A stretch of DNA of 45,009 nucleotides, taken from the UHGV virus genome UHGV-0208172. One strand, written 5' to 3'. Positions within the stretch are counted from its first letter, which is position 1, and every line of letters begins with the position of its first letter. The translations under genes and the position numbers were made by a program. The stretch comes from a virus. The notes under the pieces were generated by a model. It was not told where the DNA came from and ran no database searches. It saw only the letters and a list, made by a program, of their open reading frames with translations. Below are positions 3,440-40,465 of this stretch, in pieces.

Positions 3440-5530
3440 ATGTCAAGCGGATGCGGTGACGTTTTAAGCCTGGCGGATTTACAGACCGCCAAGAAACACC
3501 AAATATTTGAAGCTGAGGTTATCACCGGTAAATCCGGTGGGGTTGCTACGGGTGCTGATATTGATTACGCAACAAATCAGGTTACGGGGCAGACGCAGAA
3601 GACCCTCCCTGCCGTGTTGCGTGATGCGGGTTTTTCTCCGGTGTCGTGGGACTTTTCTACCGGTGGCACTCTCACGGCTAACGACCGCGACAAAGTGGTG
3701 TATGACCCCGTAAGTAAAACATGGTATTCGTACGCAGGTACGTTACCAGTTGTTGTACCCGCTGGTTTTAATCCGGTAGGTAACGCTAACTGGAAACCGC
3801 AGACGGACCCCGATTTGCGTAACGAGCTTACCGCATACGATGGGACCACGGTTGACCAGATTGCCCATCGAGTTACGACAATAAAGTCATTTGAAGAGTT
3901 TGGCGCCATTGGCGACGGGGTAACTGATGATACCTCAGCGATGCTGGCGGCATTGTCGTGGTTGGAGGGGGTGCCGTTTGGTAAATTAACAGGGCGAGTT
4001 GGGGCTAAATACCGCATACAACAGAGCCTGGTAATGAAGTTCGACGGCTCTTATACACAGGAGGTTACCTCTACAAGGTATATTGATTTCACCGGAACAA
4101 CAATCGTAGCAGGAGCTTCTGGCATCACATGCTTAAGAATGAGCCATGATTTCTGCCACATCATAAATCCAGTAGTAATTAACCCAGACAACTACTCTGA
4201 CGTTATCGCCTACGCTATCGCGCCAGAAGACGAATCTCAGACTACCGTACGCGTATCACAGCAATTCTGTGTAATGGAGAATCCACGCGCAAGGGGAACC
4301 AAAATTGGTCTTAAGTTTAAACCAGGGCCTACAGTCGGTGGGAGTAATAGCGGTGCGTATTACCACTCAATTATGAACCCAAACTTTGAGCGAGTAGACT
4401 GCGGGTTTTATTTCGAACGTAGTGTAAGCGGAGATAATAATAACACCCGCATTCATATATACGACCCGCACCATGCAACTGGGAACTGTAGCTTCTGGAT
4501 TGAAAGTACAGATAGCCTTCGTGTATTCGGTGGGCACTCAGAAAATATTACACAAGGCACTTGGCCCGCAGACGTGCCTTGTGCAGTGCGTGTTGTTAAG
4601 ACGGTGAACAGTGACACCCAAGTTGCCGGTAACTTGCGATTCTATGGTTACTTTGGCGAATTATGCACTCGTGGGTATCAGATAGATGATAACGTTGGTA
4701 CGTATAACAATTTCTTTGATTGGAGTTGGGTATTCTTAGACCAAACCCCGACACGTGCAGTAGATAAACCTTTTGAATCATTAGCAGAATTCGATGGTGT
4801 ACTTGTCTCTAGTAACTGGGATTCAACCCAGAAGAATATTGCTGGTTGTCGTAGAAGAGAATCTGGTAAACAGGCAGTAATCATACAGAACGATGATACT
4901 TTACCAGCGGAATTATACTCAGACACGAAGTGGAAATTCACATCATCTGTGCTGGAAGCTCCTGTTCAGGATGTAAGGAATAATAACAGTGGTATTCAGA
5001 TTATTGGGGCTACTGACGCAGGGGTTTTAATAACCACAACTCCAGGAACTAAAGGAATAACCCTGTCCAGTTATGATGGCAAAACATCATCTGGAAACCC
5101 AAATGGCGACTTCACCATCACCGGGTATAATGGGTTCCTTCCTGGTGCGGATAACTCTACAGTGCTGGGGTATACAGGCCACAGGTGGAGCGCAGTGTAC
5201 GCTGCGTCCGGGACTATAGTTACATCTGACGAAACGTACAAGACATTCACTACCCCATCCGACGACGAGGCTGCGCGCGAAGCAAACGCAGCAAAAGAAA
5301 TACGTTGCTCACTTCGTAGGTATAAGTTTAACGAGTCTGTCGCTGCTAAAGGTTTCGAATCGGCACGCACACACTTCGGGGTAGGTGCGCAGACAGTGGA
5401 GTCTATTCTGATGTCCAATGGGTTGAACCCTGATAATTATGCGTTTCTGTGCAAGGATGAACTGGATGGTCGGTTTGTGTATTCAATACGGTATGAAGAA
5501 TTATTGGTTTTCCTCATGATGTATTCATAA
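3440..5530 (+). CDS. tailspike / tail fibre with right-handed beta-helix depolymerase domain (pectate-lyase superfamily-like)
   Basis: 696 aa; RBS AAGAGGA upstream; motif FGAIGDGVTDDT typical of pectate-lyase-fold phage depolymerases; last gene of tail module; possible C-terminal chaperone-like domain. Confidence 0.8.
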   Translation: MSSGCGDVLSLADLQTAKKHQIFEAEVITGKSGGVATGADIDYATNQVTGQTQKTLPAVLRDAGFSPVSWDFSTGGTLTANDRDKVVYDPVSKTWYSYAGTLPVVVPAGFNPVGNANWKPQTDPDLRNELTAYDGTTVDQIAHRVTTIKSFEEFGAIGDGVTDDTSAMLAALSWLEGVPFGKLTGRVGAKYRIQQSLVMKFDGSYTQEVTSTRYIDFTGTTIVAGASGITCLRMSHDFCHIINPVVINPDNYSDVIAYAIAPEDESQTTVRVSQQFCVMENPRARGTKIGLKFKPGPTVGGSNSGAYYHSIMNPNFERVDCGFYFERSVSGDNNNTRIHIYDPHHATGNCSFWIESTDSLRVFGGHSENITQGTWPADVPCAVRVVKTVNSDTQVAGNLRFYGYFGELCTRGYQIDDNVGTYNNFFDWSWVFLDQTPTRAVDKPFESLAEFDGVLVSSNWDSTQKNIAGCRRRESGKQAVIIQNDDTLPAELYSDTKWKFTSSVLEAPVQDVRNNNSGIQIIGATDAGVLITTTPGTKGITLSSYDGKTSSGNPNGDFTITGYNGFLPGADNSTVLGYTGHRWSAVYAASGTIVTSDETYKTFTTPSDDEAAREANAAKEIRCSLRRYKFNESVAAKGFESARTHFGVGAQTVESILMSNGLNPDNYAFLCKDELDGRFVYSIRYEELLVFLMMYS

Positions 5531-5534
5531 AACT

Positions 5535-5559
5535 AAGGCCCCATAACGGGGCCTTTTCT
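5535..5559. terminator. bidirectional rho-independent terminator between convergent tail and replication transcription units
   Basis: AAGGCCCC-ATAAC-GGGGCCTT hairpin followed by TTTTCTC; U-rich on both sides. Confidence 0.6.
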
Positions 5560-5697
5560 CTACTCTTCAGATAACTTCTCCAGTACAAACGCCAGTTGTG
5601 CATTAGCGGCGTCTCTTTGCTGCCGTAGTCGTAGAACCTCCTCTTCAAGTTCCTTGATACGTTTTTGCAATGCTGGAATAGGGGCTATGATGTTCAT
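5560..5697 (-). CDS. small hypothetical coiled-coil protein (45 aa)
   Basis: ATG overlaps stop of upstream gene (ATGA coupling); MNIIAPIPALQKRIKELEEEV... ; ends at the terminator; below the ORF-track size cut-off. Confidence 0.3.
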   Translation of the reverse strand: MNIIAPIPALQKRIKELEEEVLRLRQQRDAANAQLAFVLEKLSEE

Positions 5698-5879
5698 TTC
5701 TTACCTTCGCTTTTCTTGAAACTGCGCTTTATGTCCGGCAGCGTGTAGCAGCGTGACTTTTCGTATTTACCGTCCGAGCTTACCAAAACAAAGCTGTTGC
5801 CATCTTTTGATATGTACTCGATGGTGAAAGTATTGAATGAATGTACGCTGTATATTTCATCGCCGACATTAAGTTTCAT
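5694..5879 (-). CDS. hypothetical protein (61 aa)
   Basis: ORF translationally coupled to the helicase gene stop. Confidence 0.45.
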   Translation of the reverse strand: MKLNVGDEIYSVHSFNTFTIEYISKDGNSFVLVSSDGKYEKSRCYTLPDIKRSFKKSEGKK

Positions 5880-7300
5880 TTCTTACCTCGTCTCTTCATG
5901 TAATTAAGCAACTCTTCCTGGACCGATTTCTTCTCGTCTGTGCGCGCGGCGACAACCTCGTCCAGCGTGTCTTTAGCAACTATGTGATACAGGAACACCG
6001 GGCGCTCGTGCCCTGCCTGCTTCTGGCGGACAGGGCCTATACGCTCAACGACCTGCAGATAGTGCTCAAGGTTCCAGCCTTGTGAAATAAACGCCAGATG
6101 GTGACCTCCGTCCTGTAAATTCAAACCATGCCCGGCTGACGCGGGATGCACGCATAGGATTTCGATTTCACCGCGGTTCCACGCTTCCATCTGCTTATTC
6201 CCCTTAGCGCCTTTGGTAAATGCCTGTGCTTGCGGGAATCGCTTAAGGATGCGATCCAGTTCGTGCTTGAACTGATAGGCCACCAGTAACGGTGCACCCT
6301 GTAACTCCTCAACGATAGACTCCAGCGCATCCAGTTTCGTGTCGTGCACTTTCTCCCAGTCTTTGGTTGCTTCGCCGTCCGCCCCCGAAACATACACGGC
6401 ACCGGAGGCAATCTGCAGACACTTAGATATCTTCGCCGCCGCGTTAGCCGCTTCGACTTCGCCGCTTTCCAGTTCCGCGAATAACTTCTCCTCCATGTCG
6501 ATATACGTCTGACGCGCCTTCTTCGGCAGGTCAATTTCAACCGGTACGATAATCGGCGCTTCACAACCGAACCACTCGGAGGGGTCGATAGTCAGGCTGA
6601 TGTCTTTCATCTTCTGATGAATCTCATTATCGGCACCCGGTCGTGCGTGATACTCACGTGCCATAGCCGATTTTCCTTTCTGTACTGAGTTAAACCAGCG
6701 GTCAGTGAATGCCGTATACGATGAGCCGAGGCGTTCGCCTCCATCGATAAACCAGTTCTGGCCCCACAAGTCTTTTAGGCCGTTCGGTGACGGTGTTCCT
6801 GTCAGGTTGATGAAACGCTTAACCTTACCGAACGCCACTTTACTGAGCGCCTTTGCACGCTTGCTTCCACCAGAACGGCTGCGGAACGATTTAAGCTTCG
6901 TGCTTTCATCGGCAACGATAACCGTAAAAGGCCAGTCGTCTTTGCCGTAGTAGTCAATCAGCCACTCGATAACTTCGTAGTTCGTACACACCACGTTAGC
7001 GTCCGACTCCAGCGCTGCGATACGGCGCTTCTCTGAACCGGTCGCATCGACGACATGCAGACACGGGAAGTTCCATTTCTCTTGTTCTGCGGGCCATGTA
7101 CCTGACGCAACACGCAGGGGAGCTAGGATTAACACGCGGTCCTCTTCGGTAAGCTGCCCGTTGCGGAACAATCGGTTGAGCACCCACATAGTAGAGGATG
7201 TTTTACCACCTCCCATACCGCACCATATATTACAGCGCGGGTGTTGCAGCATAAACGAAGTCATGAGCTTCTGGTATTCGCGCCTTTGAAACTTAGACAT
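5876..7300 (-). CDS. SNF2/DEAD-like superfamily 2 DNA helicase
   Basis: Walker A GMGGGKT, DExx box VIVADEST, LTGTP motif, C-terminal helicase domain; 474 aa. Confidence 0.85.
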   Translation of the reverse strand: MSKFQRREYQKLMTSFMLQHPRCNIWCGMGGGKTSSTMWVLNRLFRNGQLTEEDRVLILAPLRVASGTWPAEQEKWNFPCLHVVDATGSEKRRIAALESDANVVCTNYEVIEWLIDYYGKDDWPFTVIVADESTKLKSFRSRSGGSKRAKALSKVAFGKVKRFINLTGTPSPNGLKDLWGQNWFIDGGERLGSSYTAFTDRWFNSVQKGKSAMAREYHARPGADNEIHQKMKDISLTIDPSEWFGCEAPIIVPVEIDLPKKARQTYIDMEEKLFAELESGEVEAANAAAKISKCLQIASGAVYVSGADGEATKDWEKVHDTKLDALESIVEELQGAPLLVAYQFKHELDRILKRFPQAQAFTKGAKGNKQMEAWNRGEIEILCVHPASAGHGLNLQDGGHHLAFISQGWNLEHYLQVVERIGPVRQKQAGHERPVFLYHIVAKDTLDEVVAARTDEKKSVQEELLNYMKRRGKK

Positions 7301-7949
7301 GATTGGCCTCGTAAACTGCTTTTGCGAAACCCCGCGGAGTAAGAGACCGAAGTTGCTTAGTTCTCGCCGAAGCTCCGCCCAAGTATTTCCACCCCCAAAA
7401 ACAACCTATATGTGGAACCGGTTTTTTCTCCGGCATCGCAAAACCGTTACCGGCCCATATGCACGTCTTCTTAGTATAGGCGTCGCGTTTCGGCATCTTA
7501 GGGTGAAATACATCTTCACTTCCGTCCATATAGCCGCCGTACTCAAACGGGTTAAAATAATAGTTTGGCTTACGCCACAACGTTGACAGCTTACCTACCG
7601 GGTTTTCTACCATCCACGGTGACCCGTATACTCGGCCTAACCGTTCAGCCACCTTAGCGGTAGCAACGGCGGTATCTATTACGGATTGTTGCCGTTGGTG
7701 TTTCTCCCCACATCCGGCTAAGTCTGTACAACTAGGGAATGCGAAAATAATATCTGGCTCCGGGAAGTCGGAGAAACAGGAGTTAGGCGAGATGAACTTA
7801 TTCACGTATATAATGTTTTCATGCTGCACGCGCATTTCATACGCCCCGTGGTCAGCTCCGTCGTAGTTGAAACAATAGCAAGTATGGCCTGCTTCCGCCC
7901 ACGGCTGGGCCATAAGGCCCGAACCGTCAAACAATGACCAGACAATCAT
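7293..7949 (-). CDS. compact DNA cytosine-C5 methyltransferase-like protein
   Basis: 218 aa; motif I-like LFDGSG, Pro-Cys-like PSC, ENV motif (WMVENPVG), C-terminal LTPRGF resembling motif IX/X; unusually short. Confidence 0.55.
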   Translation of the reverse strand: MIVWSLFDGSGLMAQPWAEAGHTCYCFNYDGADHGAYEMRVQHENIIYVNKFISPNSCFSDFPEPDIIFAFPSCTDLAGCGEKHQRQQSVIDTAVATAKVAERLGRVYGSPWMVENPVGKLSTLWRKPNYYFNPFEYGGYMDGSEDVFHPKMPKRDAYTKKTCIWAGNGFAMPEKKPVPHIGCFWGWKYLGGASARTKQLRSLTPRGFAKAVYEANHV

Positions 7950-8137
7950 TTCGCCACCAGCACCAGCTCTTTACGCCCGAACGCCGTGACATTACCGGTT
8001 ACATCTTCAATGACCAGTTTACCGTTCGATTCGACGAACACCGTATCTACGGCGGCAGGACGACGGGTCTTAACGTTGAAAATCATGTCGCCCGGTACGA
8101 TGTCACGTGCTGGTTTGCGGTCATATTCGTGTTTCAT
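7946..8137 (-). CDS. hypothetical protein (63 aa)
   Basis: ORF with RBS AAGGAA; 30 nt downstream of a TTGACG-N17-TATAGT promoter. Confidence 0.5.
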   Translation of the reverse strand: MKHEYDRKPARDIVPGDMIFNVKTRRPAAVDTVFVESNGKLVIEDVTGNVTAFGRKELVLVAK

Positions 8138-8167
8138 TTCTCAATTCCTTATATTGTTGGTGTAGGA

Positions 8168-8452
8168 TTAACTATAATAGTTTGCTATTAGGTCGTCAAC
8201 CTGTTTAAACGACCCGACGACAAAAACATTTGCACCGCGTTTACGCATCCGCTCGTGCTCACGTAACTGGTGCGGGTCTGGCTTCGTGTTTTCGTCTTTC
8301 TTCACCTCGACGAACCAGACGATGCCGCCGGGGAGAATTACCAGCAGGTCAGGTGCGCCGGAACGTCCTTCGTAGGAAAGTTTACGAACGAGACCCCCCA
8401 GGGCCTCGAATCGCTCCTTTGCATATTTCTGTACGCGCCCTTCCGGGGTCAT
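8168..8452 (-). CDS. VRR-NUC domain nuclease
   Basis: 94 aa; PD-(D/E)XK-type signature GAPDLLVILPGGIVWFVEVKK. Confidence 0.75.
   Translation of the reverse strand: MTPEGRVQKYAKERFEALGGLVRKLSYEGRSGAPDLLVILPGGIVWFVEVKKDENTKPDPHQLREHERMRKRGANVFVVGSFKQVDDLIANYYS
8171..8199 (-). promoter_or_regulatory. sigma70-like promoter (class B: TTGACG-N17-TATAGT) embedded in the 3' end of the VRR-NUC gene
   Basis: Read on - strand: TTGACG ACCTAATAGCAAACTAT TATAGT; same architecture as promoters at 11967 and 14705. Confidence 0.5.
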
Positions 8453-8601
8453 GAGTGCAGAATCCAGGTAAGGAAAGCCCCGCCTAGAACGGCAACCCCG
8501 ACAAACTTAAAGAACAGGCCGTAACAGAACATCGCAGCTATTCCGGCGCCAAGTAACAGTGCGAGCATGGTTACTATCGTCCAAAATACAAACATTGTCA
8601 T
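8449..8601 (-). CDS. small hydrophobic membrane protein (50 aa), alternative to the overlapping 8507..8815 ORF
   Basis: ATG with RBS GGGAGGGG; MTMFVFWTIVTMLALLLGAGIAAMFCYGLFF...; stop overlaps VRR-NUC start (ATGA). Confidence 0.35.
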   Translation of the reverse strand: MTMFVFWTIVTMLALLLGAGIAAMFCYGLFFKFVGVAVLGGAFLTWILHS

Positions 8602-8815
8602 AATACGCACCCCTCCCGTTTCGTATGCTCAATCCCGCAGCGCGGACAGATTCGGCAGTCTTCTTCATAGAACCAGTAAATTTTCGTTCCAGCACCCACA
8701 GATAAATTGCGATGAACATACCCAATACGGCGACCATCATGCCGTATTGACCCTCGTGACAGTAGACACCGGCGGCAAATCCCGCCAGTATCGCGATAAT
8801 CAGTTTACTTAGCAT
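8507..8815 (-). CDS. hypothetical protein with hydrophobic N-terminus (frame conflict with 8449..8601)
   Basis: 102-aa ORF; N-terminal half membrane-like, C-terminal half low plausibility. Confidence 0.3.
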   Translation of the reverse strand: MLSKLIIAILAGFAAGVYCHEGQYGMMVAVLGMFIAIYLWVLERKFTGSMKKTAESVRAAGLSIRNGRGAYYDNVCILDDSNHARTVTWRRNSCDVLLRPVL

Positions 8816-11075
8816 AACGGTACACCTCTTCCCCGGCCCATGTTAGTGGGAATCCTTCGGCCCATTCAGGTAATGAGCATAGCAGATCACCCATCTCTTT
8901 AACCGTGTACTCCGGTGTGTCTGGTGTTTCGGCGACACATTCGTCATGTACGTGAAGTACAATTGGGTATCCCGCTGCCTCGACCGTCAGGAGTCCGTTA
9001 ACCAGTAAATCACGGCACAACGCTTGAATAATGTTTTCACACAATTTCCCGCCGTGGGTGTACAAAGTTGTCCACTGGCGGGTAGTCTGATTTTCGCCCT
9101 GGTACTTAATGCGAACGTTAGTTGTTACGCGCCCATCCTCGTCAGTTTCTTTAGTCACGCTTAAGCCTATGCCAGGGTAGGACATGATGCGCCCGGACGG
9201 CAACTCCACGCATAGCCACCAACCTGGCACAAAGTTACCCTGTCTGTCTTTCTCTTTAGTACGCCAGATGCGAATGGCCCTATCACCGTTGAGGCGGACT
9301 CTGGCCCCCGCCCAAAACTCTCGCCCCGGATTTCTGATTGCTGCAATTACCGAATCCTTAAGGTCGTTCCAGAATTTTACTGTTTCCGGATGAGCCTCCC
9401 GCCACATGCGCTTGATAGCATCGCAAGTGCGCCAGACTTCTTTAGGCAGCACATAAGAGGCCCGTTCATCTTTTTTACCGGGTTTCGGTGGTCGCTTAGC
9501 CTCCTGGATCCGCGCCCATTCATAACCTCGGGCAGTGGCGGCCCATATATGGTCAGGGAATGTTCCCCGCATTGTCTCCGTCATTTTAAAGAGGTCCAGA
9601 CCGTAAGTTTTAGCCATAGTCATGAAGGCCCCTACGCCCCCCTCGTAGCCAAGGCCGAGTTCGCAACATTTCCCGACCTGTCGCAGGTCCTTACGGGTGG
9701 CTTTCAGTTCTACAGGGTCCATACCAAACATCTTGCCCGCAGTGGCGCAGTAAATATCAATCCCCGCGCGGAACGTCTCAAGGGCAGACGTCTCCCCCGC
9801 CGTCCAGGCTAACCCACGCCCTTCCACGTTTGAGTAGTCGGCAACGAGCAACTTATTGCTTTTTTTCGGGATGATGCAACTGCGGACGGTTGAGGCCGTT
9901 AGTTTAGATACATCAAAACGGCGATGCGCTCGGCCCTTTAAAAGCAAATTGATGCCAAACGATAGCTGGTGCAGCCTGCGGTGCCACTCTTCGTCGGTCT
10001 CCCACTCAAAACGGACAAGCCCACCTTCGTTTTTAGGGTCGTCATGGTAGTACCCGCGCGACAGGTTCTGTGGTTGGAACGCTTTACCCGCAAATCGTAA
10101 AGTGCGCTTTGCCCCGCCGTACTGGATGCACCCACGTCGTCGTCCATCTTTGGACAGTCCTAGCAGGAGCGGTTTATATTTTGTCGACGCCGTGGAGGCT
10201 GCGCCGAGGCGCATCTCAATGATTGTACGCGCATCGTCGGGCAAGTCGTCGTCCTCTAATAAACCTTCGAGCGTTGCTTTCTGCGCATTATAAATATTGT
10301 AGGCCGGTGCCAGTTCCCGAAGGATTGGCAGGAAATCTTTGCCCGTTAGCTTCCCGCCGAACTTCGCGCGGGCCTCGTTTTTTAGCTCTTGCTTGTGGCG
10401 TTCAACCGCCGCTACCGCCGCCTCAGCAAGAGCCGTGTCAACAAAGAAGCCTCGGTCGTTGATTAGCTGGTCCAGCTCCAGTACACGGTCTTCGAATTCT
10501 GAGTTACCCCAACGCGGCAGCTTATGGAACACTTCACGCATCGCAGTGATGTCGCTCACGGCGTACTTGATAAACAAAGCCCACTCGTCCGGGTGCGTCT
10601 CAGCGGTGTAACGGCGGATTTTGTAGTTCTTCGGCGTGGGCTTAGAGAAACGCTTAATCAGCGCCTTGCCGCGTTTATCTTTCGCGTTGTCCGCGGACAC
10701 GCCCAGCACTTCGCACAACGCATCGAGCGACCCCGGCAGCGCGTGACGGAACGCCCAAATCATCGTATCAATGGTGTTACTTACCGGAATATCGAAACCC
10801 CAGCAGTGCTTCATGATGAGCCTGTCGAACATTGAACCATTGTGCCATACCATCTTGATGCGGCTGTTGGGCTTAACAAGGCGGCGTAGCGCGCGGTGCA
10901 AATCGCCTGGCATGTCGCTGCCGTCGGTGCAATCCCATACCTGCACAGGCTCGTCGTCAAAAGCATAGGTACAGATGAGCACTTCGGTTGACGGGTGTTC
11001 GGCGTAAGCGTAGGAACCGACTTTCTTCAAATCGGCTTCGGAGAATGTTTCAAAGTCCAGGTATAAGTAGCTCAT
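8805..11075 (-). CDS. family A DNA polymerase with 3'-5' exonuclease domain
   Basis: Exo I LDFETFS; pol motif A DYSNVEGR, motif B RQVGKCCELGLGYEGG, motif C HVHDE; likely start ATG at 11075 with RBS AAGGAAAAAG (track start 11129 is TTG). Confidence 0.9.
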   Translation of the reverse strand: MSYLYLDFETFSEADLKKVGSYAYAEHPSTEVLICTYAFDDEPVQVWDCTDGSDMPGDLHRALRRLVKPNSRIKMVWHNGSMFDRLIMKHCWGFDIPVSNTIDTMIWAFRHALPGSLDALCEVLGVSADNAKDKRGKALIKRFSKPTPKNYKIRRYTAETHPDEWALFIKYAVSDITAMREVFHKLPRWGNSEFEDRVLELDQLINDRGFFVDTALAEAAVAAVERHKQELKNEARAKFGGKLTGKDFLPILRELAPAYNIYNAQKATLEGLLEDDDLPDDARTIIEMRLGAASTASTKYKPLLLGLSKDGRRRGCIQYGGAKRTLRFAGKAFQPQNLSRGYYHDDPKNEGGLVRFEWETDEEWHRRLHQLSFGINLLLKGRAHRRFDVSKLTASTVRSCIIPKKSNKLLVADYSNVEGRGLAWTAGETSALETFRAGIDIYCATAGKMFGMDPVELKATRKDLRQVGKCCELGLGYEGGVGAFMTMAKTYGLDLFKMTETMRGTFPDHIWAATARGYEWARIQEAKRPPKPGKKDERASYVLPKEVWRTCDAIKRMWREAHPETVKFWNDLKDSVIAAIRNPGREFWAGARVRLNGDRAIRIWRTKEKDRQGNFVPGWWLCVELPSGRIMSYPGIGLSVTKETDEDGRVTTNVRIKYQGENQTTRQWTTLYTHGGKLCENIIQALCRDLLVNGLLTVEAAGYPIVLHVHDECVAETPDTPEYTVKEMGDLLCSLPEWAEGFPLTWAGEEVYRYAK

Positions 11076-11244
11076 TTCTTTTTCCTTAAATCCAGTGCCT
11101 TCGTTTCGCTTAATCTTATTTTCATACAATCACGGCAAATCCACACATGCCGGTGTCCGGCCCGGTAATCATCCGCGTACCACGGAAGCGGTTTGATATA
11201 GTGGTAAACGTGCTTACAGAAAAACATTATTTTCGACCCTTAGT

Positions 11245-11267
11245 AAAAAGGCCCAATGAAGGGCCTT
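11245..11267 (-). terminator. rho-independent terminator downstream of SSB-like gene
   Basis: AAGGCCC-TTCATT-GGGCCTT hairpin followed by TTTTT on - strand. Confidence 0.5.
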
Positions 11268-11286
11268 AGTTAAATTGATTCAGATA

Positions 11287-11913
11287 TTAGCGACGACGGC
11301 GTTCGCGGCGCGGTGCTTCATCTTCTTCGTCGTCTTCCAGGTCATTGACGCTTGCAGCGACTTTAGAACCACCGAACGCTTTACCTTCGCCGACGTATTT
11401 AATTGCCAGCAGGTTAACACCGAGAACTTTGTATTTCTGGCTGAACCAGATTTCTACGCTTACGTTGGCGACGCAACCGCTGTAAACCTGTTCGCCTTCA
11501 ATCTGTTCGCCGTCTACGTTGAAGTCCTGCTCTACCTGAGTCTCGCCTTTTTTAGAGGTTACAATCAGTGGCTGCTTCTGGGCCTTCGCCTTGAAGTAGA
11601 AGCCTTCCGGGAAGTCTTCAAACGGATTGTCGCGCTCGGCAATGTCTTTAATTGCGCATTTATCCATGTGCTTACCTTCTCCGTAGTTGGACTTCATCCA
11701 CTTCTCGGCGGCGGCTGCACCCAACGCCTCTTCAACTACAGCGTAAACGGTGTCGTAGAGCGCGTCGATTTGTGCGTGGTCAGACGGCAGGATGATAGTC
11801 GCGCTGTACTGGCCTTTAGTGATTGAGCCATCATCGTTTTCACGGTCTTTTTCGCGTTCGAATACGTTAACCCAGGCAGTGTTTACTTTACGCAGATTCA
11901 GTTTAATACCCAT
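11287..11913 (-). CDS. phage ssDNA-binding protein-like (DUF2815-type)
   Basis: 208 aa; acidic C-terminal stretch DLEDDEEDE followed by RRERRRR; position next to polymerase and Cas4-like nuclease. Confidence 0.6.
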   Translation of the reverse strand: MGIKLNLRKVNTAWVNVFEREKDRENDDGSITKGQYSATIILPSDHAQIDALYDTVYAVVEEALGAAAAEKWMKSNYGEGKHMDKCAIKDIAERDNPFEDFPEGFYFKAKAQKQPLIVTSKKGETQVEQDFNVDGEQIEGEQVYSGCVANVSVEIWFSQKYKVLGVNLLAIKYVGEGKAFGGSKVAASVNDLEDDEEDEAPRRERRRR

Positions 11914-11966
11914 CTTAATTTCTCGCTTTTAAGTTTACTCCGGGAACTGCCCGGCCAGTGATTAGA

Positions 11967-11995
11967 ACTATAATAGCTAACTATTCAGGTGTCAA
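11967..11995 (-). promoter_or_regulatory. sigma70-like promoter (class B: TTGACA-N17-TATAGT) upstream of SSB-like gene
   Basis: Read on - strand: TTGACA CCTGAATAGTTAGCTAT TATAGT. Confidence 0.5.
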
Positions 11996-11999
11996 CACT

Positions 12000-13241
12000 T
12001 TATTCCAAATCTTCTTCACTAACCTGATTCCAACCGAAGCTGTTAAAGTGATACCGGAAGAAGAACTGAAAGACTTCATCACACGTAAGCCAGGTGCCCA
12101 GTTCTTCTTCCGGTATCACTTTAACAGCTTCGGTTGGCGTCATGAGCACTTCTTTAGTCAGCTTGTCGCCGTAGAGTTCTGCTACTTTCTCTGCGTCTTT
12201 CCACGCACGGTTGCCCATCTTACCCTCCACCAGCTTGTACCCAGGAACTTTCTTACCGGAATGCAATGCGGCGGACATCGCTTTCTCAACCTTGTCGATG
12301 TGCTGGCGCAACAGCGGCAACTTCTCATACTCAACTACGAGTTGCTCCGGCGTCAGTTCCAGCACAAAGTCGTCTTCAAGTTCTTCCGCCAGTACCGCGT
12401 TAACGGTTTTTGTACGCGCGGCGCATTGTTCAGAGAACCGGCACCACTGACAACCATCGACCGACGGCCTGAAGTCCGATGCTTTCAGGTTCTTTTTACC
12501 GCGGAAATAAGCATCAAGCGCTAACAGTGCGCGTTTCTGCGCGAACTTAGCGAACAGTTCCAGACCTTCAACCGAGATGTCCCACTCCGACGCACCGCCT
12601 GCGTACGGCTGAAAGATGACCAGGCGAACAACTGTGATGTTATAACGTCTCTTGAGTCGGCGATAAACACCGAGAGCGTAAAGCATAAGCTGCTTGTTTT
12701 CTTTCGCTTCGACACGATGTCGTCCAGTTTTAAGGTCGCCGATGATTAGCATGTGTTCGTCGGTGTTAGCCAGTTCCTGCACGGCAACAAGGTCGGCCGT
12801 TCCGAACGTCTCAACGCCTTCATACCCCGGATGCAACACCTCAGTAAGATTTACCCGCATTTCCAGCTTGGCGTAAGTCGCTACGTCGATAATTGGTTTG
12901 CAGTAGTCGGTGTACTTGCGCACCTGCTCAATCATGTCCGCCGTAATCAGTACCGCGCCTTTCATCGGGCTAATTAGCGCCTTAATCTGGCCTTTACCCT
13001 CGTCCAGCACGTAAGCACCTACCTCGCGCTCTAATGGCAACGCAGTGCCTTTTATATACTGGTTTAGATGGACCTCAGCTATAGTGTGACATGCGGTTCC
13101 TGTAACGGCGGCTTTACCGGACGTGTTAGGAATATCTTTTTCACAGGCCAGGGATGCAGCGCAACTTAGCCACTTTTTAGCGCCAGACGGTGACAGTAAA
13201 GCGTGCACATCGTTATTGCCGCCGCGTTCCTTTAAAATCAT
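12000..13241 (-). CDS. Cas4/RecB-like PD-(D/E)XK nuclease with Fe-S cysteine cluster (DUF2800-type)
   Basis: 413 aa; N-terminal SPSGAKKWLSC, nuclease motifs DLVAV / IGDLKTG / QLMLYAL, C-terminal CQWCRFSEQC (C-x2-C-x5-C). Confidence 0.7.
   Translation of the reverse strand: MILKERGGNNDVHALLSPSGAKKWLSCAASLACEKDIPNTSGKAAVTGTACHTIAEVHLNQYIKGTALPLEREVGAYVLDEGKGQIKALISPMKGAVLITADMIEQVRKYTDYCKPIIDVATYAKLEMRVNLTEVLHPGYEGVETFGTADLVAVQELANTDEHMLIIGDLKTGRHRVEAKENKQLMLYALGVYRRLKRRYNITVVRLVIFQPYAGGASEWDISVEGLELFAKFAQKRALLALDAYFRGKKNLKASDFRPSVDGCQWCRFSEQCAARTKTVNAVLAEELEDDFVLELTPEQLVVEYEKLPLLRQHIDKVEKAMSAALHSGKKVPGYKLVEGKMGNRAWKDAEKVAELYGDKLTKEVLMTPTEAVKVIPEEELGTWLTCDEVFQFFFRYHFNSFGWNQVSEEDLE
12030..12137. 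repeat. perfect 39-bp inverted repeat (arms 12030-12068 and 12099-12137, 30-nt spacer) inside the nuclease coding sequence
   Basis: Arm 1 CCAACCGAAGCTGTTAAAGTGATACCGGAAGAAGAACTG is the exact reverse complement of arm 2. Confidence 0.85.
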
Positions 13242-13600
13242 CGTAAACTCTCCAAATACAAGTTTAATGCCTGTAGCTGTTCTTCTGTGGGAATGAAAGA
13301 ACCATCGCGATGTAAGTCGCTTAACTGTTGCAACATTCCTGCGAACTGACGTCTTGCGTCAACAGCGACCATGTGATGCTTTTCACTTTTATATATTAAT
13401 GTTTTCGGGTAATCCTCAAGTCTACCAGAAGATTTATTCACGCGGAGTGCTCGAGCTTCATGCACAATGTGGATGTACTTTTTGCCGTTTTGTAACACAG
13501 TAGCTACGCCGCTGTTCTTTCTGCGGTCACCGACGGTATAGACTTTGTCGCCACTACGCAGGTTAAGCCACCATTTATCGGTCATACCCTGTTCTCCCAC
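13238..13600 (-). CDS. hypothetical protein (120 aa)
   Basis: ORF in leftward replication operon, overlaps neighbours. Confidence 0.5.
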   Translation of the reverse strand: MGEQGMTDKWWLNLRSGDKVYTVGDRRKNSGVATVLQNGKKYIHIVHEARALRVNKSSGRLEDYPKTLIYKSEKHHMVAVDARRQFAGMLQQLSDLHRDGSFIPTEEQLQALNLYLESLR

Positions 13601-13854
13601 TGGTCAATTAAATGTCGTGTCTGGCGATGGCAATGCATGGCCCACCCATACATCGACTCGAAGACATAAAAGTCAGGTTTGGCGAATGTCGTGCGCTTAA
13701 TCTGAGACACATGACGGCCTATATCTTTAGGTCGTGGTACTTTTCCTAAGTACGCCATCTCTTCCATATAGTGCGCACCGGACGGCGCACGCAATAGCCA
13801 CAACGCCTCTGTGTTATCCCGCCTGTCAACGGCGCGGTATAGTTGATAAATCAT
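13582..13854 (-). CDS. hypothetical protein (90 aa)
   Basis: ORF in leftward operon. Confidence 0.5.
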   Translation of the reverse strand: MIYQLYRAVDRRDNTEALWLLRAPSGAHYMEEMAYLGKVPRPKDIGRHVSQIKRTTFAKPDFYVFESMYGWAMHCHRQTRHLIDQWENRV

Positions 13855-13897
13855 ATTTCCGACCCTCAGTTAAAGCGGCCCGAAGGCCGCGGGATAG

Positions 13898-14416
13898 TTA
13901 TTCTTCTTCAAAATACTTGTTCTTGATTTCTGTGAGGCGTTCCAGGTACTCAGCCAGGTCTTCGTCTTTAATCGCGGCAATCTTCATCTTCTTACCGGTG
14001 AACTCTTCCAGCAGTTCATCAGAATCATCGCACGCGGCATCGCTCGGGCCTTCGTTAATCGCATCGTCGATAGCCTGAATCTGATTGCGAAGAGACTCGT
14101 AATCAATCATCTCATCTACCTGCTCTGGTGTTACAGTTTCCTCTACTTTAGCTTTACGCGGCTTACGTTTCGGCTTCTCTTCTTCTGCCGGTTTAGTGTC
14201 TACGATGTCTTCGCCTTCGACCGGGATTTCTTTCACCTTATCTACTTCCTCAAGTGCTTTAGCCAGTTCTTTTTTAACTGTTTCTACCCCCGTGACCGCT
14301 ACGTCAACGGTTAATTCACCTACTGATTTGCTGTTTTGCGGTTTCGCGCTGTTAGCGGCAATCAGTTCATGGGCGACTACAAAACGTTCCAGTAATTTTA
14401 AAAATTGGTCTAACAT
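13898..14416 (-). CDS. highly acidic hypothetical protein (172 aa) with a basic KPKRKPRKAK patch
   Basis: ORF translationally coupled to upstream gene (ATGA); Glu/Asp-rich. Confidence 0.55.
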   Translation of the reverse strand: MLDQFLKLLERFVVAHELIAANSAKPQNSKSVGELTVDVAVTGVETVKKELAKALEEVDKVKEIPVEGEDIVDTKPAEEEKPKRKPRKAKVEETVTPEQVDEMIDYESLRNQIQAIDDAINEGPSDAACDDSDELLEEFTGKKMKIAAIKDEDLAEYLERLTEIKNKYFEEE

Positions 14417-14673
14417 TATTTGTTCTCCTGTTTATTTAACTCATTTTTATAGTCTTCGTAGTAAACTACTTCACTTTCAAGCGGTCTGGATGGCTCGCGC
14501 ACCAGACCGGATGCTATACCGCCGTATATCTCGGCACAATCGTACGGCCAGTTTCCGGTAGAGTCGTAGAAGTCAATCGTCGCTTCATCTACAAACCTAA
14601 CACATTCCGTAGCCTCTGCAGGCCAGCCCCCATACTTAGGTAGTTCTTTAAGAAGCAAGTCAATTAACTGCAT
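14416..14673 (-). CDS. hypothetical protein (85 aa)
   Basis: First gene after class B promoter at 14705; RBS GAGAGGAG. Confidence 0.5.
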   Translation of the reverse strand: MQLIDLLLKELPKYGGWPAEATECVRFVDEATIDFYDSTGNWPYDCAEIYGGIASGLVREPSRPLESEVVYYEDYKNELNKQENK

Positions 14674-14704
14674 CTGTTTCTCTCCTCTCGTTTGGTATGG
14701 GCTA

Positions 14705-14733
14705 ACTATAATAGCTAACTATTCACGTGTCAA
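14705..14733 (-). promoter_or_regulatory. sigma70-like promoter (class B: TTGACA-N17-TATAGT) with GTGAATAGT operator-like core
   Basis: Read on - strand: TTGACA CGTGAATAGTTAGCTAT TATAGT; 30 nt upstream of ATG at 14673. Confidence 0.55.
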
Positions 14734-14737
14734 CGGG

Positions 14738-14766
14738 CTTTTATAAAATAATTAATATGGTACTAT
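14738..14766 (+). promoter_or_regulatory. putative weak rightward promoter for the Cro-like gene (-10 TACTAT, AT-rich -35 region), divergent from promoter at 14705
   Basis: TACTATTCAC -10 region identical to class A promoters; poor -35 (CTTTTA). Confidence 0.35.
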
Positions 14767-14797
14767 TCACATATCAACTGACTAAGGAGTAATTGAC

Positions 14798-15013
14798 ATG
14801 CAACCATCTGAACTAGGCATTCGCGTAGAACAACGCCGTAAAGAACTCGGCATCTCCCAGCGCCGTCTGGCTGTCCTGGCCGGCGTTTCCCAGGGCGCGA
14901 TTAACCAGCTTGCACTCGGTGTAACTCAGGACGTCCGCCCGGCAACGCTGTTTAAACTGGCGGAAGTGCTGGAAGTAGACGCCAAGTGGCTGGCGTTAGG
15001 TGAAGGGGCTTAA
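14798..15013 (+). CDS. XRE-family helix-turn-helix transcriptional regulator (Cro/CI-like)
   Basis: 71 aa; HTH QRRLAVLAGVSQGAINQLALG; RBS AAGGAG; only + strand gene within the leftward module. Confidence 0.8.
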   Translation: MQPSELGIRVEQRRKELGISQRRLAVLAGVSQGAINQLALGVTQDVRPATLFKLAEVLEVDAKWLALGEGA

Positions 15014-15029
15014 GCCCCTTTCTTTTTAC

Positions 15030-17297
15030 CTATTCCAAATCCTCCTCTGTCACTGTCAGCATTTCATTCGGTTCGTATATTGTCTTCGGAATCTTGTTAT
15101 CCGTTATCCTGGTGTTAAGCCGGTAGCGGCCAGGTATTATCTGATTGTTTTCGTCGGTTCCTGGCACAAGATACCCCGCCTCAACCATTTTCTTGATCTT
15201 CCCGCGTTCTATAGCTTCTTTGGAGTTAAACGCCTTCGCGTTGGGGTCGGACTGTGCGAGCTTATTAGCTGCGGCTACCGTGATACCTTCGTTGCCGTTG
15301 TAGGTTCCTTCCGCCAGTTCAAACGCCGCCAGTATCGTGGCCTCCGAACTGTTGACGGCGTTCTCTACGGTTTTACGTACGTTTTCTTTACCTTCTTTCG
15401 ACAGCCCCTCTTCCCGCTCTTTCTCCTCGTCGGTCTTGAACGGCTCGAAGCCCCACGGCATCAGCACAAGCGCTTTGTGCGGCTCTGGCAGGTCCAGGTT
15501 TACGATTGTGCCGTATTCCTCTGTGCTACCGAGGAACTCAACCGCGCGGTATTCTTTCGGCGGCGGGGCTTCGCGGAACTGTACCGACTCCAGCACCATG
15601 CCAACCGTCTTCTGTTGGGGTCCGTGTTTGAATTTCGAGTGGTATACATTTATCTGACGGTCTGTCGCGCGTTCGATTGTCAGTTCCACGTCGACACCCG
15701 CGTACAGCGCCCCACTGCCACGGGCTTTCTTCCCGCCCTTAGGCGTATGGTGGACGACGCCCACCGCGGCTTTAGTCGCATCACGTACTTCTTTCAGGAT
15801 GGCGATAACTTTACCCATGCCGATTGCCGTTGATGAGCTGTTCTCGTCGAACTTATCAATCGTCAGGGCCAGCGTCTGGTTGAGGGTGTCGAACGCAACC
15901 ATGCCAATAGGCTCGTCGCCAGCGGTTTCGCGCATTAGCTTAATCAGGCTTTTCAGTTTTCCGACTTCACCCATGTCGATGACATGTACATAATCTTTAC
16001 CTTCCGCGCCATATTTAGCCGCGAGCGCATCAATACGTGTACGTGTGGCGGCGCCGCCCTCGCCGTCGATATAGAAATGGTGGCAACGCTGGGTATCCGC
16101 CCCCGCAAACCGGTATCCGGCGGCGCTGAGGTACATCATCCCCATCGTATAGAATGATTTGTACGTGCCAGATTCCCCGACAATATCCCAGATACAATCC
16201 GACGGCATGTACCCCTCAACGACGAAATCAGCCTTTACCGGTTCTGGTAACTCGTCCCCCTCTGAGTCCTCATCGTCTTCCAGGTCGTCGAGGCTGCATG
16301 AAACAGATTCACGCGCACCCCATCCTATAGCCTCAGCCACTTCACTGAACGGCAGCCCGGTCGCATCGCACGCATACTTCCACACCTCTTTCGGCGACAT
16401 ACCTTCGGTTGCCGTAATGTCGGTGTCGTGAATCATGGTTACGTTCGGCGCTTCATATCCCTCGCGTGGGAAGCACAACAGGAAGTCGTCCGGGCGCGGC
16501 GTCGGGTCGCTGTAGTTTTCTGCGTGTTCATGTGTAGCTGGCATCTTAAGGCCTCGGGGGGTCATGATGCCACCGTACTCGAACGCCAGTGCCTCGAACG
16601 CGTCTGTAAACGCGGTGCGCAGTTCTTCCGGTATCTGGTAGTCAGATGCGCTGCTCACCTCGTAATCCGGGATGCCTTCCAGTAATTCGTCCGGGTCAAT
16701 CAGGTCGTTACGGCGCGACCAGATAACAGTAGAGCCAACCGGCGGCAGGTACATAGGCTGGGACAGAGTGAAACCGCTGCGGTCAGCGCCCATGCCTTTG
16801 AAGAAGTGCTCCAGCAAGCCATGACGAACACGGATGATGTCTCCGCCTTCAACCGGGCGGCCCAGCGGCATGACGACACGAAAGCGCGGTGACTCATCGG
16901 TATGTGATGCCGTGGTATAGATACACATTGCCTGGCGGCTGCGCTTAACCAGGCGCACCGCTTCCTGATACTCTTCCGGCGTCGCACTGTCGAAGTCAAG
17001 ATACGCCAGCGATGATTTGCTTACAGACGCGTCACAGCGGTAGAAGAAGCCTTTGCGCGCTTGCTTAAAGTCACCGGTTTCCGGGTCTTTTACGGTGCTG
17101 TGCGTTGAGTCACACGCGGCAGTGATATAACCAGGCGCGGTCTTAGGGTTAATCCCGTCGCGAACGGCATCGAGCGGCCGGATTAACTCTTTCAGGTCGT
17201 CCAGTGTTGCCGTGTGTGTGGTTCTGACGTTTATATCCTTTTTCTCCGCCCGCGCGTTGCGACGAGACCACGAGTAGGATAAAATTACATCGGACAT
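15030..17297 (-). CDS. primase-helicase (N-terminal primase-like region, C-terminal RecA/DnaB-like AAA ATPase)
   Basis: 755 aa; Walker A GESGTYKS, Walker B-like IGMVAFD; ends with EEDLE. Confidence 0.75.
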   Translation of the reverse strand: MSDVILSYSWSRRNARAEKKDINVRTTHTATLDDLKELIRPLDAVRDGINPKTAPGYITAACDSTHSTVKDPETGDFKQARKGFFYRCDASVSKSSLAYLDFDSATPEEYQEAVRLVKRSRQAMCIYTTASHTDESPRFRVVMPLGRPVEGGDIIRVRHGLLEHFFKGMGADRSGFTLSQPMYLPPVGSTVIWSRRNDLIDPDELLEGIPDYEVSSASDYQIPEELRTAFTDAFEALAFEYGGIMTPRGLKMPATHEHAENYSDPTPRPDDFLLCFPREGYEAPNVTMIHDTDITATEGMSPKEVWKYACDATGLPFSEVAEAIGWGARESVSCSLDDLEDDEDSEGDELPEPVKADFVVEGYMPSDCIWDIVGESGTYKSFYTMGMMYLSAAGYRFAGADTQRCHHFYIDGEGGAATRTRIDALAAKYGAEGKDYVHVIDMGEVGKLKSLIKLMRETAGDEPIGMVAFDTLNQTLALTIDKFDENSSSTAIGMGKVIAILKEVRDATKAAVGVVHHTPKGGKKARGSGALYAGVDVELTIERATDRQINVYHSKFKHGPQQKTVGMVLESVQFREAPPPKEYRAVEFLGSTEEYGTIVNLDLPEPHKALVLMPWGFEPFKTDEEKEREEGLSKEGKENVRKTVENAVNSSEATILAAFELAEGTYNGNEGITVAAANKLAQSDPNAKAFNSKEAIERGKIKKMVEAGYLVPGTDENNQIIPGRYRLNTRITDNKIPKTIYEPNEMLTVTEEDLE

Positions 17298-17355
17298 GTT
17301 GTATTTCCTTCAGCAAGTAATTTGGCCTCGGCGTTCACCGCGTCGGGGCTTTCTT

Positions 17356-17589
17356 TTATTCCAGGTCTTCTAAAGTAGCGGCCATTCCGCGAACTTCAGC
17401 AACGGCGCTATATTTCCCGCCAACATTTTTCACGACACCGGATTTAACCAGTACCTTCAACGACCCTTCAATAATGGCGGAACTATAGTACTTAAAATAA
17501 CTACGGCGCAAGTCGATAACGCTGCACGACCCCTTTTTACGCGTCAACGAAACGACTGCCGTAAATACACGCGACTGGAACTCGGTCAT
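17356..17589 (-). CDS. hypothetical protein (77 aa) ending in LEDLE
   Basis: ATGA coupling with upstream HTH gene. Confidence 0.5.
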   Translation of the reverse strand: MTEFQSRVFTAVVSLTRKKGSCSVIDLRRSYFKYYSSAIIEGSLKVLVKSGVVKNVGGKYSAVAEVRGMAATLEDLE

Positions 17590-17840
17590 TTCACGTTCTC
17601 CTTAATCCACGCTTCCACTTTCTCCGGGTCAAACGTACCGGGCTGACGGCGGCCCATAATGCGGATACAACAATCCGGGAACTTCCCACTCTTTAACCAG
17701 TTATTAAGCGTGCGGCGAGTAACCCCGATACGCTCAGCTACTTCATTCTGTGTCATCTTTAATCTCCTTAATTGTTTCACGCGCGAACGCTGTAGCTGTG
17801 CCGTATTTATTGGGGCAGTATCTGCTCTCATTATGCCCAC
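17586..17840 (-). CDS. AlpA/excisionase-like (MerR-superfamily) HTH DNA-binding protein
   Basis: RIGVTRRTLNNWLKSGKFPD ... EAWI pattern typical of AlpA-family regulators; strong RBS AAGGAG before ATG at 17756; true start ambiguous between 17756 and 17840. Confidence 0.65.
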   Translation of the reverse strand: MGIMRADTAPINTAQLQRSRVKQLRRLKMTQNEVAERIGVTRRTLNNWLKSGKFPDCCIRIMGRRQPGTFDPEKVEAWIKENVK

Positions 17841-17895
17841 TAAACCACGCTTCTATTAGCAACTCTTTCAACTGTTCTTCTGTCAAAGTAACCAT
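17743..17895 (-). CDS. small hypothetical protein (about 50 aa), first gene after leftward promoter
   Basis: ATG at 17895 with GAGGG RBS; frame conflict with long form of the HTH gene. Confidence 0.3.
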   Translation of the reverse strand: MVTLTEEQLKELLIEAWFSGHNESRYCPNKYGTATAFARETIKEIKDDTE

Positions 17896-17927
17896 TCTCA
17901 AACCCTCATTATCAGTTAACGAAGCCA

Positions 17928-17956
17928 AGTATACATTGCGAATAATGGGAAATCAA
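17928..17956 (-). promoter_or_regulatory. putative leftward early promoter (TTGATT-N17-TATACT)
   Basis: Hexamers with 17-nt spacer at the head of the leftward operon. Confidence 0.45.
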
Positions 17957-17971
17957 ACATAATCACACCTA

Positions 17972-18000
17972 TTGACATTACGAAAATCTTCGTTTAAGGT
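17972..18000 (+). promoter_or_regulatory. putative rightward promoter (TTGACA-N17-TAAGGT) in divergent control region
   Basis: Consensus -35 with 17-nt spacer and TAnnnT -10. Confidence 0.4.
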
Positions 18001-18144
18001 GCTTCTATATCTTAGTTACTTTGATTCCTGTTCACCTTGTAATACCCGCTTGAAACGCAGCGGCGCACCAGCGCCAGCGAAGTGTTAAGCGGCAGATTAC
18101 TGAACATATGAATTATAGTAACTTCCCTTCCTAAGTATCTCCTG

Positions 18145-18228
18145 TTGCCCTGGGCAAGCTCTATTCTCATCGGCAGCATATCTTTTAAGCCACTGATAAT
18201 TAAAAGTTTCTATAGTTGCCGTGGGCAA
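18145..18228. promoter_or_regulatory. pair of 13-bp palindromes TTGCC-N3-GGCAA (18145-18157, 18216-18228), putative operator sites
   Basis: TTGCCCTGGGCAA and TTGCCGTGGGCAA, centres 71 bp apart, in the 455-bp divergent non-coding region. Confidence 0.45.
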
Positions 18229-18331: not shown

Positions 18332-18360
18332 TTGCACACCCCAACATAATAGGATACTAT
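18332..18360 (+). promoter_or_regulatory. sigma70-like early promoter (class A: TTGCAC-N17-TACTAT) with conserved leader
   Basis: TTGCAC ACCCCAACATAATAGGA TACTAT TCACTTACCGAAACGAGA...GAGGAG; near-identical copies at 19738, 30714-30742 (-) and 40437-40465 (-). Confidence 0.6.
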
Positions 18361-18385
18361 TCACTTACCGAAACGAGACAGAGGA

Positions 18386-19071: not shown

Positions 19072-19074
19072 GTT

Positions 19075-19737: not shown

Positions 19738-19766
19738 TTGCACACTGGGATAGAATAGACTACTAT
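19738..19766 (+). promoter_or_regulatory. sigma70-like early promoter (class A: TTGCAC-N17-TACTAT)
   Basis: TTGCAC ACTGGGATAGAATAGAC TACTAT TCATTTACACGAACGAGAGGAG. Confidence 0.55.
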
Positions 19767-30713: not shown

Positions 30714-30742
30714 ATAGTATCCTATTATGTTGGGGTGTGCAA
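30714..30742 (-). promoter_or_regulatory. sigma70-like early promoter (class A: TTGCAC-N17-TACTAT), reverse orientation
   Basis: Read on - strand: TTGCAC ACCCCAACATAATAGGA TACTAT TCACTTATCGAAACGAGAGATAAGGAA...ATG. Confidence 0.6.
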
Positions 30743-40436: not shown

Positions 40437-40465
40437 ATAGTACCCTATTATATTGGGGTGCGCAA
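40437..40465 (-). promoter_or_regulatory. sigma70-like early promoter (class A variant: TTGCGC-N17-TACTAT), reverse orientation
   Basis: Read on - strand: TTGCGC ACCCCAATATAATAGGG TACTAT TCACTTACACCAACAATG. Confidence 0.55.

Follow-up and report, generated by a model that had tools for sequence, protein, structure and literature searches.

The operators of phage 434 are palindromes of 14 bp, and the protein makes no contact with their central base pairs. Occlusion of RNA polymerase is the expected outcome where an operator overlaps the -10 element or the spacer of a promoter. The C1 operators of phage P1 and the gp71 sites of mycobacteriophage L5 form dispersed-operator regulons of temperate-phage immunity repressors. 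Here we analyse a repeated palindrome, AATAG-N4-CTATT, that lies within promoters of the virus genome UHGV-0208172, together with a small Cro-like helix-turn-helix (HTH) protein that may bind it. The window is the whole stretch of DNA analysed, 45,009 nucleotides. The window region is 84-91% identical to Kagunavirus genomes (Guernseyvirinae: SZH-1, LM02P1 and fFiEco02) and has a looser relation to Jerseyvirus. The repeat itself is already known, as a PHIRE motif (tgAATAGTa-ccTATTat-T) listed as seven ‘phage promoters’ in the Kagunavirus phages fBC-Eco01 and VB_EcoS-Golestan (PMC9825357, PMC7203180). The Golestan table lists both copies upstream of the ‘CRO’ ORF48 (PMC7203180), and the authors of the fBC-Eco01 study assigned the motif to a phage RNA polymerase (PMC9825357). 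Neither paper describes the dyad, its two orientations or the TTGACA-N17-TATAGT promoters that we call class B; the six host promoters given for fBC-Eco01 all lie on the opposite strand, and the leftward class B promoters were missed (PMC9825357). In the Jerseyvirus SGP-C, the two HTH proteins were suggested to act together as a lysogeny switch, and the study reported turbid plaques and immune ‘lysogens’ (PMC8790156).

Our analysis indicates that the PHIRE motif is the same repeat as an operator embedded in sigma-70-type promoters. This promoter-plus-operator reading is well supported, and the circuit is an uncharacterised case of the familiar Cro-type repressor/operator kind. The likeness to 434 extends to the protein, which has 71 amino acids and an HTH_3 domain and for which 434 Cro is the best solved relative, matching over its full length. 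It extends also to the operator, 14 bp long with conserved outer half-sites and a variable centre (ACAA-N6-TTGT in 434), and to its placement, with operators overlapping core promoter elements and one lying in the regulator’s own promoter. The differences are that the half-site here is AATAG, that a CI partner was not found and a tripartite OR is absent, and that at least eight exact operators are dispersed over the genome of a phage whose group is reported to have no lysogeny genes (PMC9825357). The locus resembles lambda PR/PRM in having two back-to-back promoters, each with an overlapping operator that presumably binds one and the same protein, but here there are one regulator gene, two operators 44-45 bp apart and no evidence of bistability or lysogeny. 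With the P1 C1 and L5 gp71 systems it shares many dispersed, asymmetric sites in both orientations and a single small regulator, but the setting here is lytic and the sites are quasi-palindromic. A published annotation of a related Kagunavirus reports no lysogeny genes, integrase included (PMC9825357). Among the genes that we scanned none had a lysogeny function (integrase or plasmid maintenance), although the window was not systematically scanned for such functions.

Class B and class A promoters and their palindromic operator

The region 5694-17840 is a leftward replication and recombination module. Its proteins include an SNF2-type helicase, an A-family DNA polymerase, a VRR-NUC-like protein, an Enc34/DUF2815 single-stranded DNA-binding protein (SSB), a DUF2800/PD-(D/E)XK nuclease and a primase-helicase. 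The three class B promoters of this module, P1, P2 and P3 (Table 1), are well supported as predicted strong host sigma-70 promoters that would re-initiate leftward transcription within the replication block. The pattern TTGACR-N17-TATAGT, with at most one mismatch, has exactly three matches in the window, all on the minus strand, against 0.27 expected, and in 100 shuffles three matches were never reached. The same sites are the top three sigma-70-like sites in 5500-25000 (scores 11/12, 11/12 and 10/12) and constitute the top direct-repeat family of the window (D1). Each has a -35 close to TTGACA, a -10 close to TATAAT, with A at -11 and T at -7, and a spacing within 17 +/- 1 bp, and a gene starts 25-50 nt downstream of each. 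A preliminary description made from the sequence had placed class B promoters at these three positions and proposed that they drive segments of the leftward module; the counts confirm the pattern, and the three near-consensus sites lend support to the predicted role. A rightward promoter using the plus-strand TATAAT within the class B sites was considered and rejected, as it has no -35. Activation by a MerR-type protein bound in the spacer was likewise rejected, since it needs a dyad in an over-long spacer of 19-20 bp whereas the spacers here are 17 or 18 bp.

P1, with the spacer ACCTAATAGCAAACTAT and a predicted start near 8164, would serve the gene at 7946-8137 and the helicase block. The earlier placement of P1 in the last codons of a VRR-NUC gene stands as to position, namely the last ten codons of the open reading frame (ORF) 8168-8452. 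The gene’s identity is less firm, the VRR_NUC match (E 1e-3) being under the Pfam cut-off, with relatives carrying the same annotation. P2 begins 4 bp past the nuclease stop codon and would serve the SSB-like gene 11287-11913 and the DNA polymerase; its spacer, CCTGAATAGTTAGCTAT, starts with CTG and not with GTG as first given. P3 (spacer CGTGAATAGTTAGCTAT) has an A+T-rich stretch upstream, at 14736-14755, and would serve the genes 14416-14673, 13898-14416 and onward to the nuclease.

Each class B spacer holds AATAG-N4-CTATT. In the window this palindrome has eight exact copies against 0.04 expected, and 13 copies against 0.93 when one mismatch is allowed. Four exact copies sit in a second type of promoter, class A, of the form TTGCAC/TTGCGC-N17-TACTAT. 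The class A and B copies fall in the repeat families D1, I1, I3, I17 and I25, of which I1 is a 47-nt repeat at the 18332-18360 promoter with a 98% match to 30696-30742. Both classes have in common an asymmetric core, ATAATAG-nnnA-CTATTCAC. Class B read on the plus strand is AACTATAATAGCTAACTATTCAC and class A in its own sense direction is CATAATAGGATACTATTCAC, and the aligned cores bear out the earlier claim that the class B half-sites are those of class A inverted relative to transcription. The extended site is also asymmetric (GTGAATAG...CTATTAT), and in class B the GTGAATAG half is toward the -35. The operator occupies -25 to -12 in class B and -19 to -6 in class A, where it is inverted and shifted 6 bp downstream, with CTATT contributing to the -10 TACTAT. 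Together the two classes would serve replication genes, nucleotide-metabolism genes and small genes of mostly unknown function; the promoter at 40437-40465, for example, would serve genes for superinfection-immunity-like, exonuclease, polynucleotide kinase (PNK) and deoxynucleoside monophosphate (dNMP) kinase proteins.

Table 1. Promoters, operators and genes of the proposed circuit, with positions in the window
Feature	Position	Strand	Description
P1 (class B)	8171..8199	-	-35 TTGACG 8199..8194; 17-bp spacer; -10 TATAGT 8176..8171
P1 operator	8176-8189		AATAGCAAACTATT, exact palindrome
P2 (class B)	11967..11995	-	-35 TTGACA; 17-bp spacer; -10 TATAGT
P2 operator	11972-11985		AATAGTTAGCTATT, exact palindrome
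P3 (class B)	14705..14733	-	-35 TTGACA; 17-bp spacer; -10 TATAGT
P3 operator	14710-14723		AATAGTTAGCTATT, exact palindrome
VRR-NUC-like gene	8168..8452	-	last 10 codons (VDDLIANYYS*) encode P1
Class A promoter	18332..18360	+	TTGCAC-N17-TACTAT; operator 18348-18361, inverted
Class A promoter	19738..19766	+	operator 19754-19767
Class A promoter	30714..30742	-	operator 30713-30726
Class A promoter	40437..40465	-	-35 TTGCGC; operator 40436-40449
HTH gene	14798..15013	+	71 amino acids; HTH_3 (XRE-family), 434-Cro-like; candidate operator-binding repressor
HTH-gene promoter	14738..14767	+	poor -35 CTTTTA; 17 bp; TG 14758-14759; -10 TACTAT 14761-14766
Operator in HTH-gene promoter	14754-14767		AATATGGTACTATT, degenerate
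HTH-gene terminator	15002..15028	+	intrinsic; GAAGGGGCTTAAGCCCCTTT + T run; stop codon within loop
Second small HTH protein	17586..17756	-	HTH_17, excisionase-like; 56 amino acids from internal ATG; candidate rival binder

Conservation was assessed in 74 related loci fetched using the nuclease protein, a comparison that spans about 50 Kagunavirus and Jerseyvirus genomes; to avoid circularity, loci were anchored on flanking sequence and not on the motif. The exact palindrome is present in 46 of 49 anchored orthologous sites at P1, 45 of 50 at P2 and 36 of 39 at P3, and the exceptions judged orthologous differ from it by one base. The central 4 bp take six to ten values per site, and the linker to the -35, 4 or 5 bp long, varies in sequence. 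The class B hexamers are kept across these genomes with a spacer of 17 or 18 bp, and equivalent hexamers are also found in the more distant phiEap-2 and TS6. That the half-sites are fixed while the centre drifts indicates selection on the dyad and not hitch-hiking. At P1 the half-sites fall on the codons CTA, ATA, TAT and TAT, which make up 7%, 14%, 36% and 36% of their synonymous families in this genome. Minority codons are therefore fixed within a coding region, which points to a DNA-level constraint. The two central P1 codons show amino acid changes between genera.

Equivalent promoters were compared in other lineages. In VLCpiS11a-like Klebsiella phages the orthologue of the 18332-18360 class A promoter shares its leader and its MFKKG gene start; it is TTGCAA-N18-TATACT and has no dyad. 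In Dhillonvirus the promoter after the nuclease gene, equivalent to P2, is TTGACC-N17-TAGATT and carries in its spacer the motif GCAACCAA, which also marks the class-A-like promoters of that genus. Since equivalent promoters lack the palindrome or bear a motif of their own lineage, the palindrome is an added operator and not a core promoter element. Such lineage-own embedded motifs are what one expects of operators for lineage-specific regulators. Another multi-copy palindrome was sought in the VLCpiS11a-like phages, where the candidate ATACTATAGTAT occurs just once per locus. Host-factor sites were also rejected: of the ARG box (TGAAT-N4-ATTCA) and CRP sites only one half matches, and E. coli phages of sister lineages use a different motif.

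Further copies of the operator occur in other settings. An exact copy, AATAGGTTACTATT, at 19438-19451 has no recognisable -35; it sits between the end of the gene 19222-19431 and a terminator at 19465-19486 and is kept in several relatives. Two one-mismatch copies, at 22944-22957 and 30804-30817, are centred on the -35 of two rightward promoters (at 22949, TTGACT-N17-TATATT, and at 30810, TTGACT-N17-TAAGCT) ahead of the packaging and head gene blocks. The former is kept in all loci reaching that far, and the latter is preceded by an everted copy, ACTATT-CG-AATAGT. The sequence TATAGTATGCTATT at 28348-28361 directly follows a terminator (28328-28343) and precedes the gene start at 28354/28398; it is a PHIRE ‘promoter’ listed for Golestan (PMC7203180). 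Just upstream of class A operators there is a second conserved element, ACCCCAACAT / AACCAAACAT (for example at 18338-18347). It resembles TTGCAACCAA, a promoter-marking motif of Dhillonvirus and VLCpiS11a-like phages, which in Dhillonvirus is a 10-3-10 palindrome, TTGCAACCAATAGGTTGGTTGCA.

The divergent locus and the candidate operator-binding proteins

The gene for the Cro-like protein lies next to P3 and is the sole plus-strand gene within 5694-17840. Its product matches Pfam HTH_3 with E 2e-12 (47.2 bits against a cut-off of 23), and the match to 434 Cro (1zug, 71 amino acids) has E 2e-6 over residues 6-68. Escherichia phage VerenaMeyer_Bas76 of the BASEL collection encodes the same protein (100% identity) and would make a handy experimental stand-in. 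Its promoter and P3 are back to back, with predicted starts about 75 bp apart. The degenerate operator in this promoter carries a G-to-T change that creates the TG of an extended -10; in relatives this TG is conserved and is followed by G, A or C, and Jersey-type phages have TTGCGT-N17-TACTAT here. An alternative rightward candidate, TTCACG-N16-TAAAAT at 14722-14749, scores 9/12. The terminator hairpin at 15002-15021 is predicted to act on the plus strand only, as the minus strand has no U tract, and the equivalent hairpin in Ent1 is annotated as a terminator on both strands.

The preliminary description of this locus holds in part. It had described P3 as back to back with a weak rightward promoter of the only plus-strand gene of the module, and both the arrangement (TG-n-TACTAT with no good -35) and the uniqueness of the gene agree with our results. 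It had also put the two ACTATTCAC copies 43 bp apart, in a layout typical of a genetic switch. The copies begin at 14718 and 14762, a start-to-start distance of 44 bp with a gap of 35 bp, and among relatives the spacing is 44 bp in 17 loci, 45 bp in 13 and 43 bp in one. Because the spacing varies, the helical phasing of the two operators is not fixed, and an arrangement that depends on fixed phasing was rejected. A switch in the CI/Cro sense, with two mutually antagonistic regulators read divergently from shared and adjacent operators, is not supported at this locus, which has one regulator gene and two operators at a spacing of 43-45 bp. No antagonist regulator was found at the divergent locus, and inspection by eye revealed no third operator-like sequence between the two operators. 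A circuit of shut-off and autoregulation fits better than a bistable switch.

As to which protein binds the operator, we place the Cro-like protein ahead of the HTH_17 protein, and we would give the former somewhat better than even odds. The Cro-like gene has a degenerate operator in its own promoter. Homologues of its product are found in Kagunavirus, Jerseyvirus, phiEap-2, TS6 and VLCpiS11a-like phages; in all five lineages the divergent promoter beside the gene has AATA-N6-TATT-type dyads, which are found also at P2 in phiEap-2 and TS6. Both the protein and an AATA-type motif are absent from Dhillonvirus. The recognition helix, SQGAINQ, shows no change in any Kagunavirus-type variant; for lack of such variation, a covariation test of helix against operator within Kagunavirus was set aside. 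The Jersey-type protein is 49% identical, has the helix SQSLITH and goes together with an altered flank. The base before AATAG is T in 100% of Jersey-type sites, which makes a perfect 16-bp palindrome, and G in 75% of Kagunavirus sites. An outside test of the link between protein and operator was also set aside: a protein search returned 20 proteins (E <= 1e-8) but no independent genomic contexts. The full-length proteins among them are 77-97% identical to the query, and the long contigs recorded are 28-45 kb, about the size of a phage genome.

Several observations weigh against this assignment and the circuit built on it. The AATAG/CTATT core is the same in Kagunavirus and Jerseyvirus though the Cro-like helices differ at four of seven positions. 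In both promoter classes the Kagunavirus site is asymmetric, with GTGAATAG on one side and TATAATAG on the other, and is thus not simply explained by a symmetric homodimer. Operator-like sequences lie over the -35 of the two rightward TTGACT promoters (22944 and 30804), which suggests that plain early shut-off may be too simple. In the literature we found no transcriptomic, transcript-mapping or regulator-binding study of this phage group, and so neither transcript 5’ ends nor binding data. Finally, the helix of the second HTH protein is the same in the two genera, and this protein is confined to the lineages with the exact palindrome.

The last point raises the possibility that the palindrome is bound by the HTH_17 (excisionase/Cox-like) protein, with the Cro-like protein regulating only locally or regulating something else. 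In favour of this, the HTH_17 protein is limited to Kagunavirus and Jerseyvirus, where AATAG-N4-CTATT is exact and multi-copy, and its HTH region is nearly identical in the two genera, in parallel with the identical core; it has also been proposed as a CI/Cox-like partner of the Cro-like protein in SGP-C (PMC8790156). We nevertheless consider it unlikely. phiEap-2 has ten sites within one mismatch of the palindrome yet no detectable HTH_17 homologue, and TS6, also without a homologue, has just related and more degenerate dyads at the promoters equivalent to P3 and P2. The candidate promoter upstream of the HTH_17 gene showed no operator, and the protein has no significant solved relative. A 5-4-5 palindrome is moreover typical of Cro/CI-type dimers, whereas winged helices of the Xis/Cox type use direct repeats.

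Proposed circuit and alternative readings

We propose that in the replication and recombination block of this Kagunavirus-type lytic siphophage of E. coli, host sigma-70 RNA polymerase would re-initiate leftward transcription at P1, P2 and P3, with the 14-bp operator in each spacer, AATAG-N4-CTATT, acting as a binding site. The same operator, inverted, would gate the four TTGCAC-N17-TACTAT promoters of other non-structural operons. A Cro-like dimer on these operators would block RNA polymerase, since they overlap the spacer or the -10. As the Cro-like protein accumulated it would turn down early and middle transcription, and it would limit its own synthesis through the weaker operator in the divergent promoter. 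Because genes for replication and nucleotide metabolism would be under the class A and B promoters, the circuit looks like a shut-off of early and middle genes; we speculate that graded operator strength could order that shut-off. The architecture of the sites, its conservation and the family of the protein are shown by the sequences, and promoter activity, the identity of the binder and the sign of regulation are inferred. For the circuit as a whole, including the binder and the sign of regulation, we estimate a probability of roughly 0.55.

The Cro-like protein might instead be a dual regulator that represses class A and B promoters and activates either the TTCACG-N16-TAAAAT promoter or the late TTGACT promoters. 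The 9/12 score of the former, and the abutment of its -35 on the P3 operator, which is centred near -39.5 in a geometry resembling that of CI at OR2 relative to PRM, are consistent with such a role, as are the conserved operator-like sequences whose centres fall on the -35 of the 22949 and 30810 promoters. The distance between the two operators varies between 44 and 45 bp in relatives, however, the alternative promoter is not conserved in Jersey-type phages, and a site centred at -33.5 is at no known activating position. This makes activation quite improbable. Still less credible is that the motif is a promoter for a phage-encoded or modified RNA polymerase, as the fBC-Eco01 authors concluded, or a duplicated cassette that binds no protein. 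PHIRE does recover the motif as the dominant repeat (PMC9825357, PMC7203180), and class A copies are 92-98% identical over 38-47 nt, consistent with duplication. But Pfam scans of seven large ORFs found no RNA polymerase domain and the annotation of relatives has none, the motif is found both ways round, and in no fewer than two registers, with respect to clear sigma-70 hexamers, and a drifting centre between fixed half-sites is seen over about 50 genomes.

A broader version would make the Cro-like protein a master repressor that silences nearly the whole genome, giving a repressor-maintained carrier or pseudolysogenic state and homoimmunity in the supposedly strictly lytic Kagunavirus and Jerseyvirus. 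The operators cover at least eight promoters exactly, or about a dozen when degenerate sites are counted, and such a state would fit the turbid plaques and immune ‘lysogens’ of SGP-C (PMC8790156). We regard this as a long shot, and the Cro-like protein is the one to examine for claims of immunity or pseudolysogeny in this group. Kagunavirus and Jerseyvirus phages are among those most often isolated as candidates for therapy and biocontrol of E. coli and Salmonella. For these phages, the operator reading replaces the published label of promoters for a phage RNA polymerase, for which no gene was found in our scans. It yields a testable circuit in which host-type promoters would be gated by one small Cro-like protein, gives a first, sequence-predicted transcription map of the replication module and defines compact, strong and probably repressible promoter parts.

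Other repeats, leaders and terminators

A 44-nt inverted repeat, with arms at 12025-12068 and 12099-12142 that are 95% complementary around a 30-nt loop, occupies part of the 3’ end of the nuclease gene and lies 28 bp upstream of P2. No repeat is present at this place in relatives, and it is shared by none of 50,697 phage records. In the window, a 66-nt segment has given way to the reverse complement of the 66 nt next to it; the length is the same and the frame stays open, and the nuclease tail is changed from KDFITRKPGAPCITTADDKRPE to GTWLTCDEVFQFFFRYHFNSFG. The change has the appearance of a template-switch (fold-back) mutation or of an assembly artefact. Ahead of the SSB-like gene, the leader (11915-11960) contains a hairpin, CCGGGCAGTTCCCGG, that is conserved in sequence; an RNA structure was rejected because its folding does not surpass that of shuffled sequences (z = 0.87). 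Upstream of the start codon, AACGAGAGGAG is common to many leaders, those of Dhillonvirus included. Terminator hairpins of the near-identical form AAGGCCCC-loop-GGGGCCTT are found at three module boundaries, 5535-5555, 29895-29915 and 37986-38005, the last of which scores on both strands.

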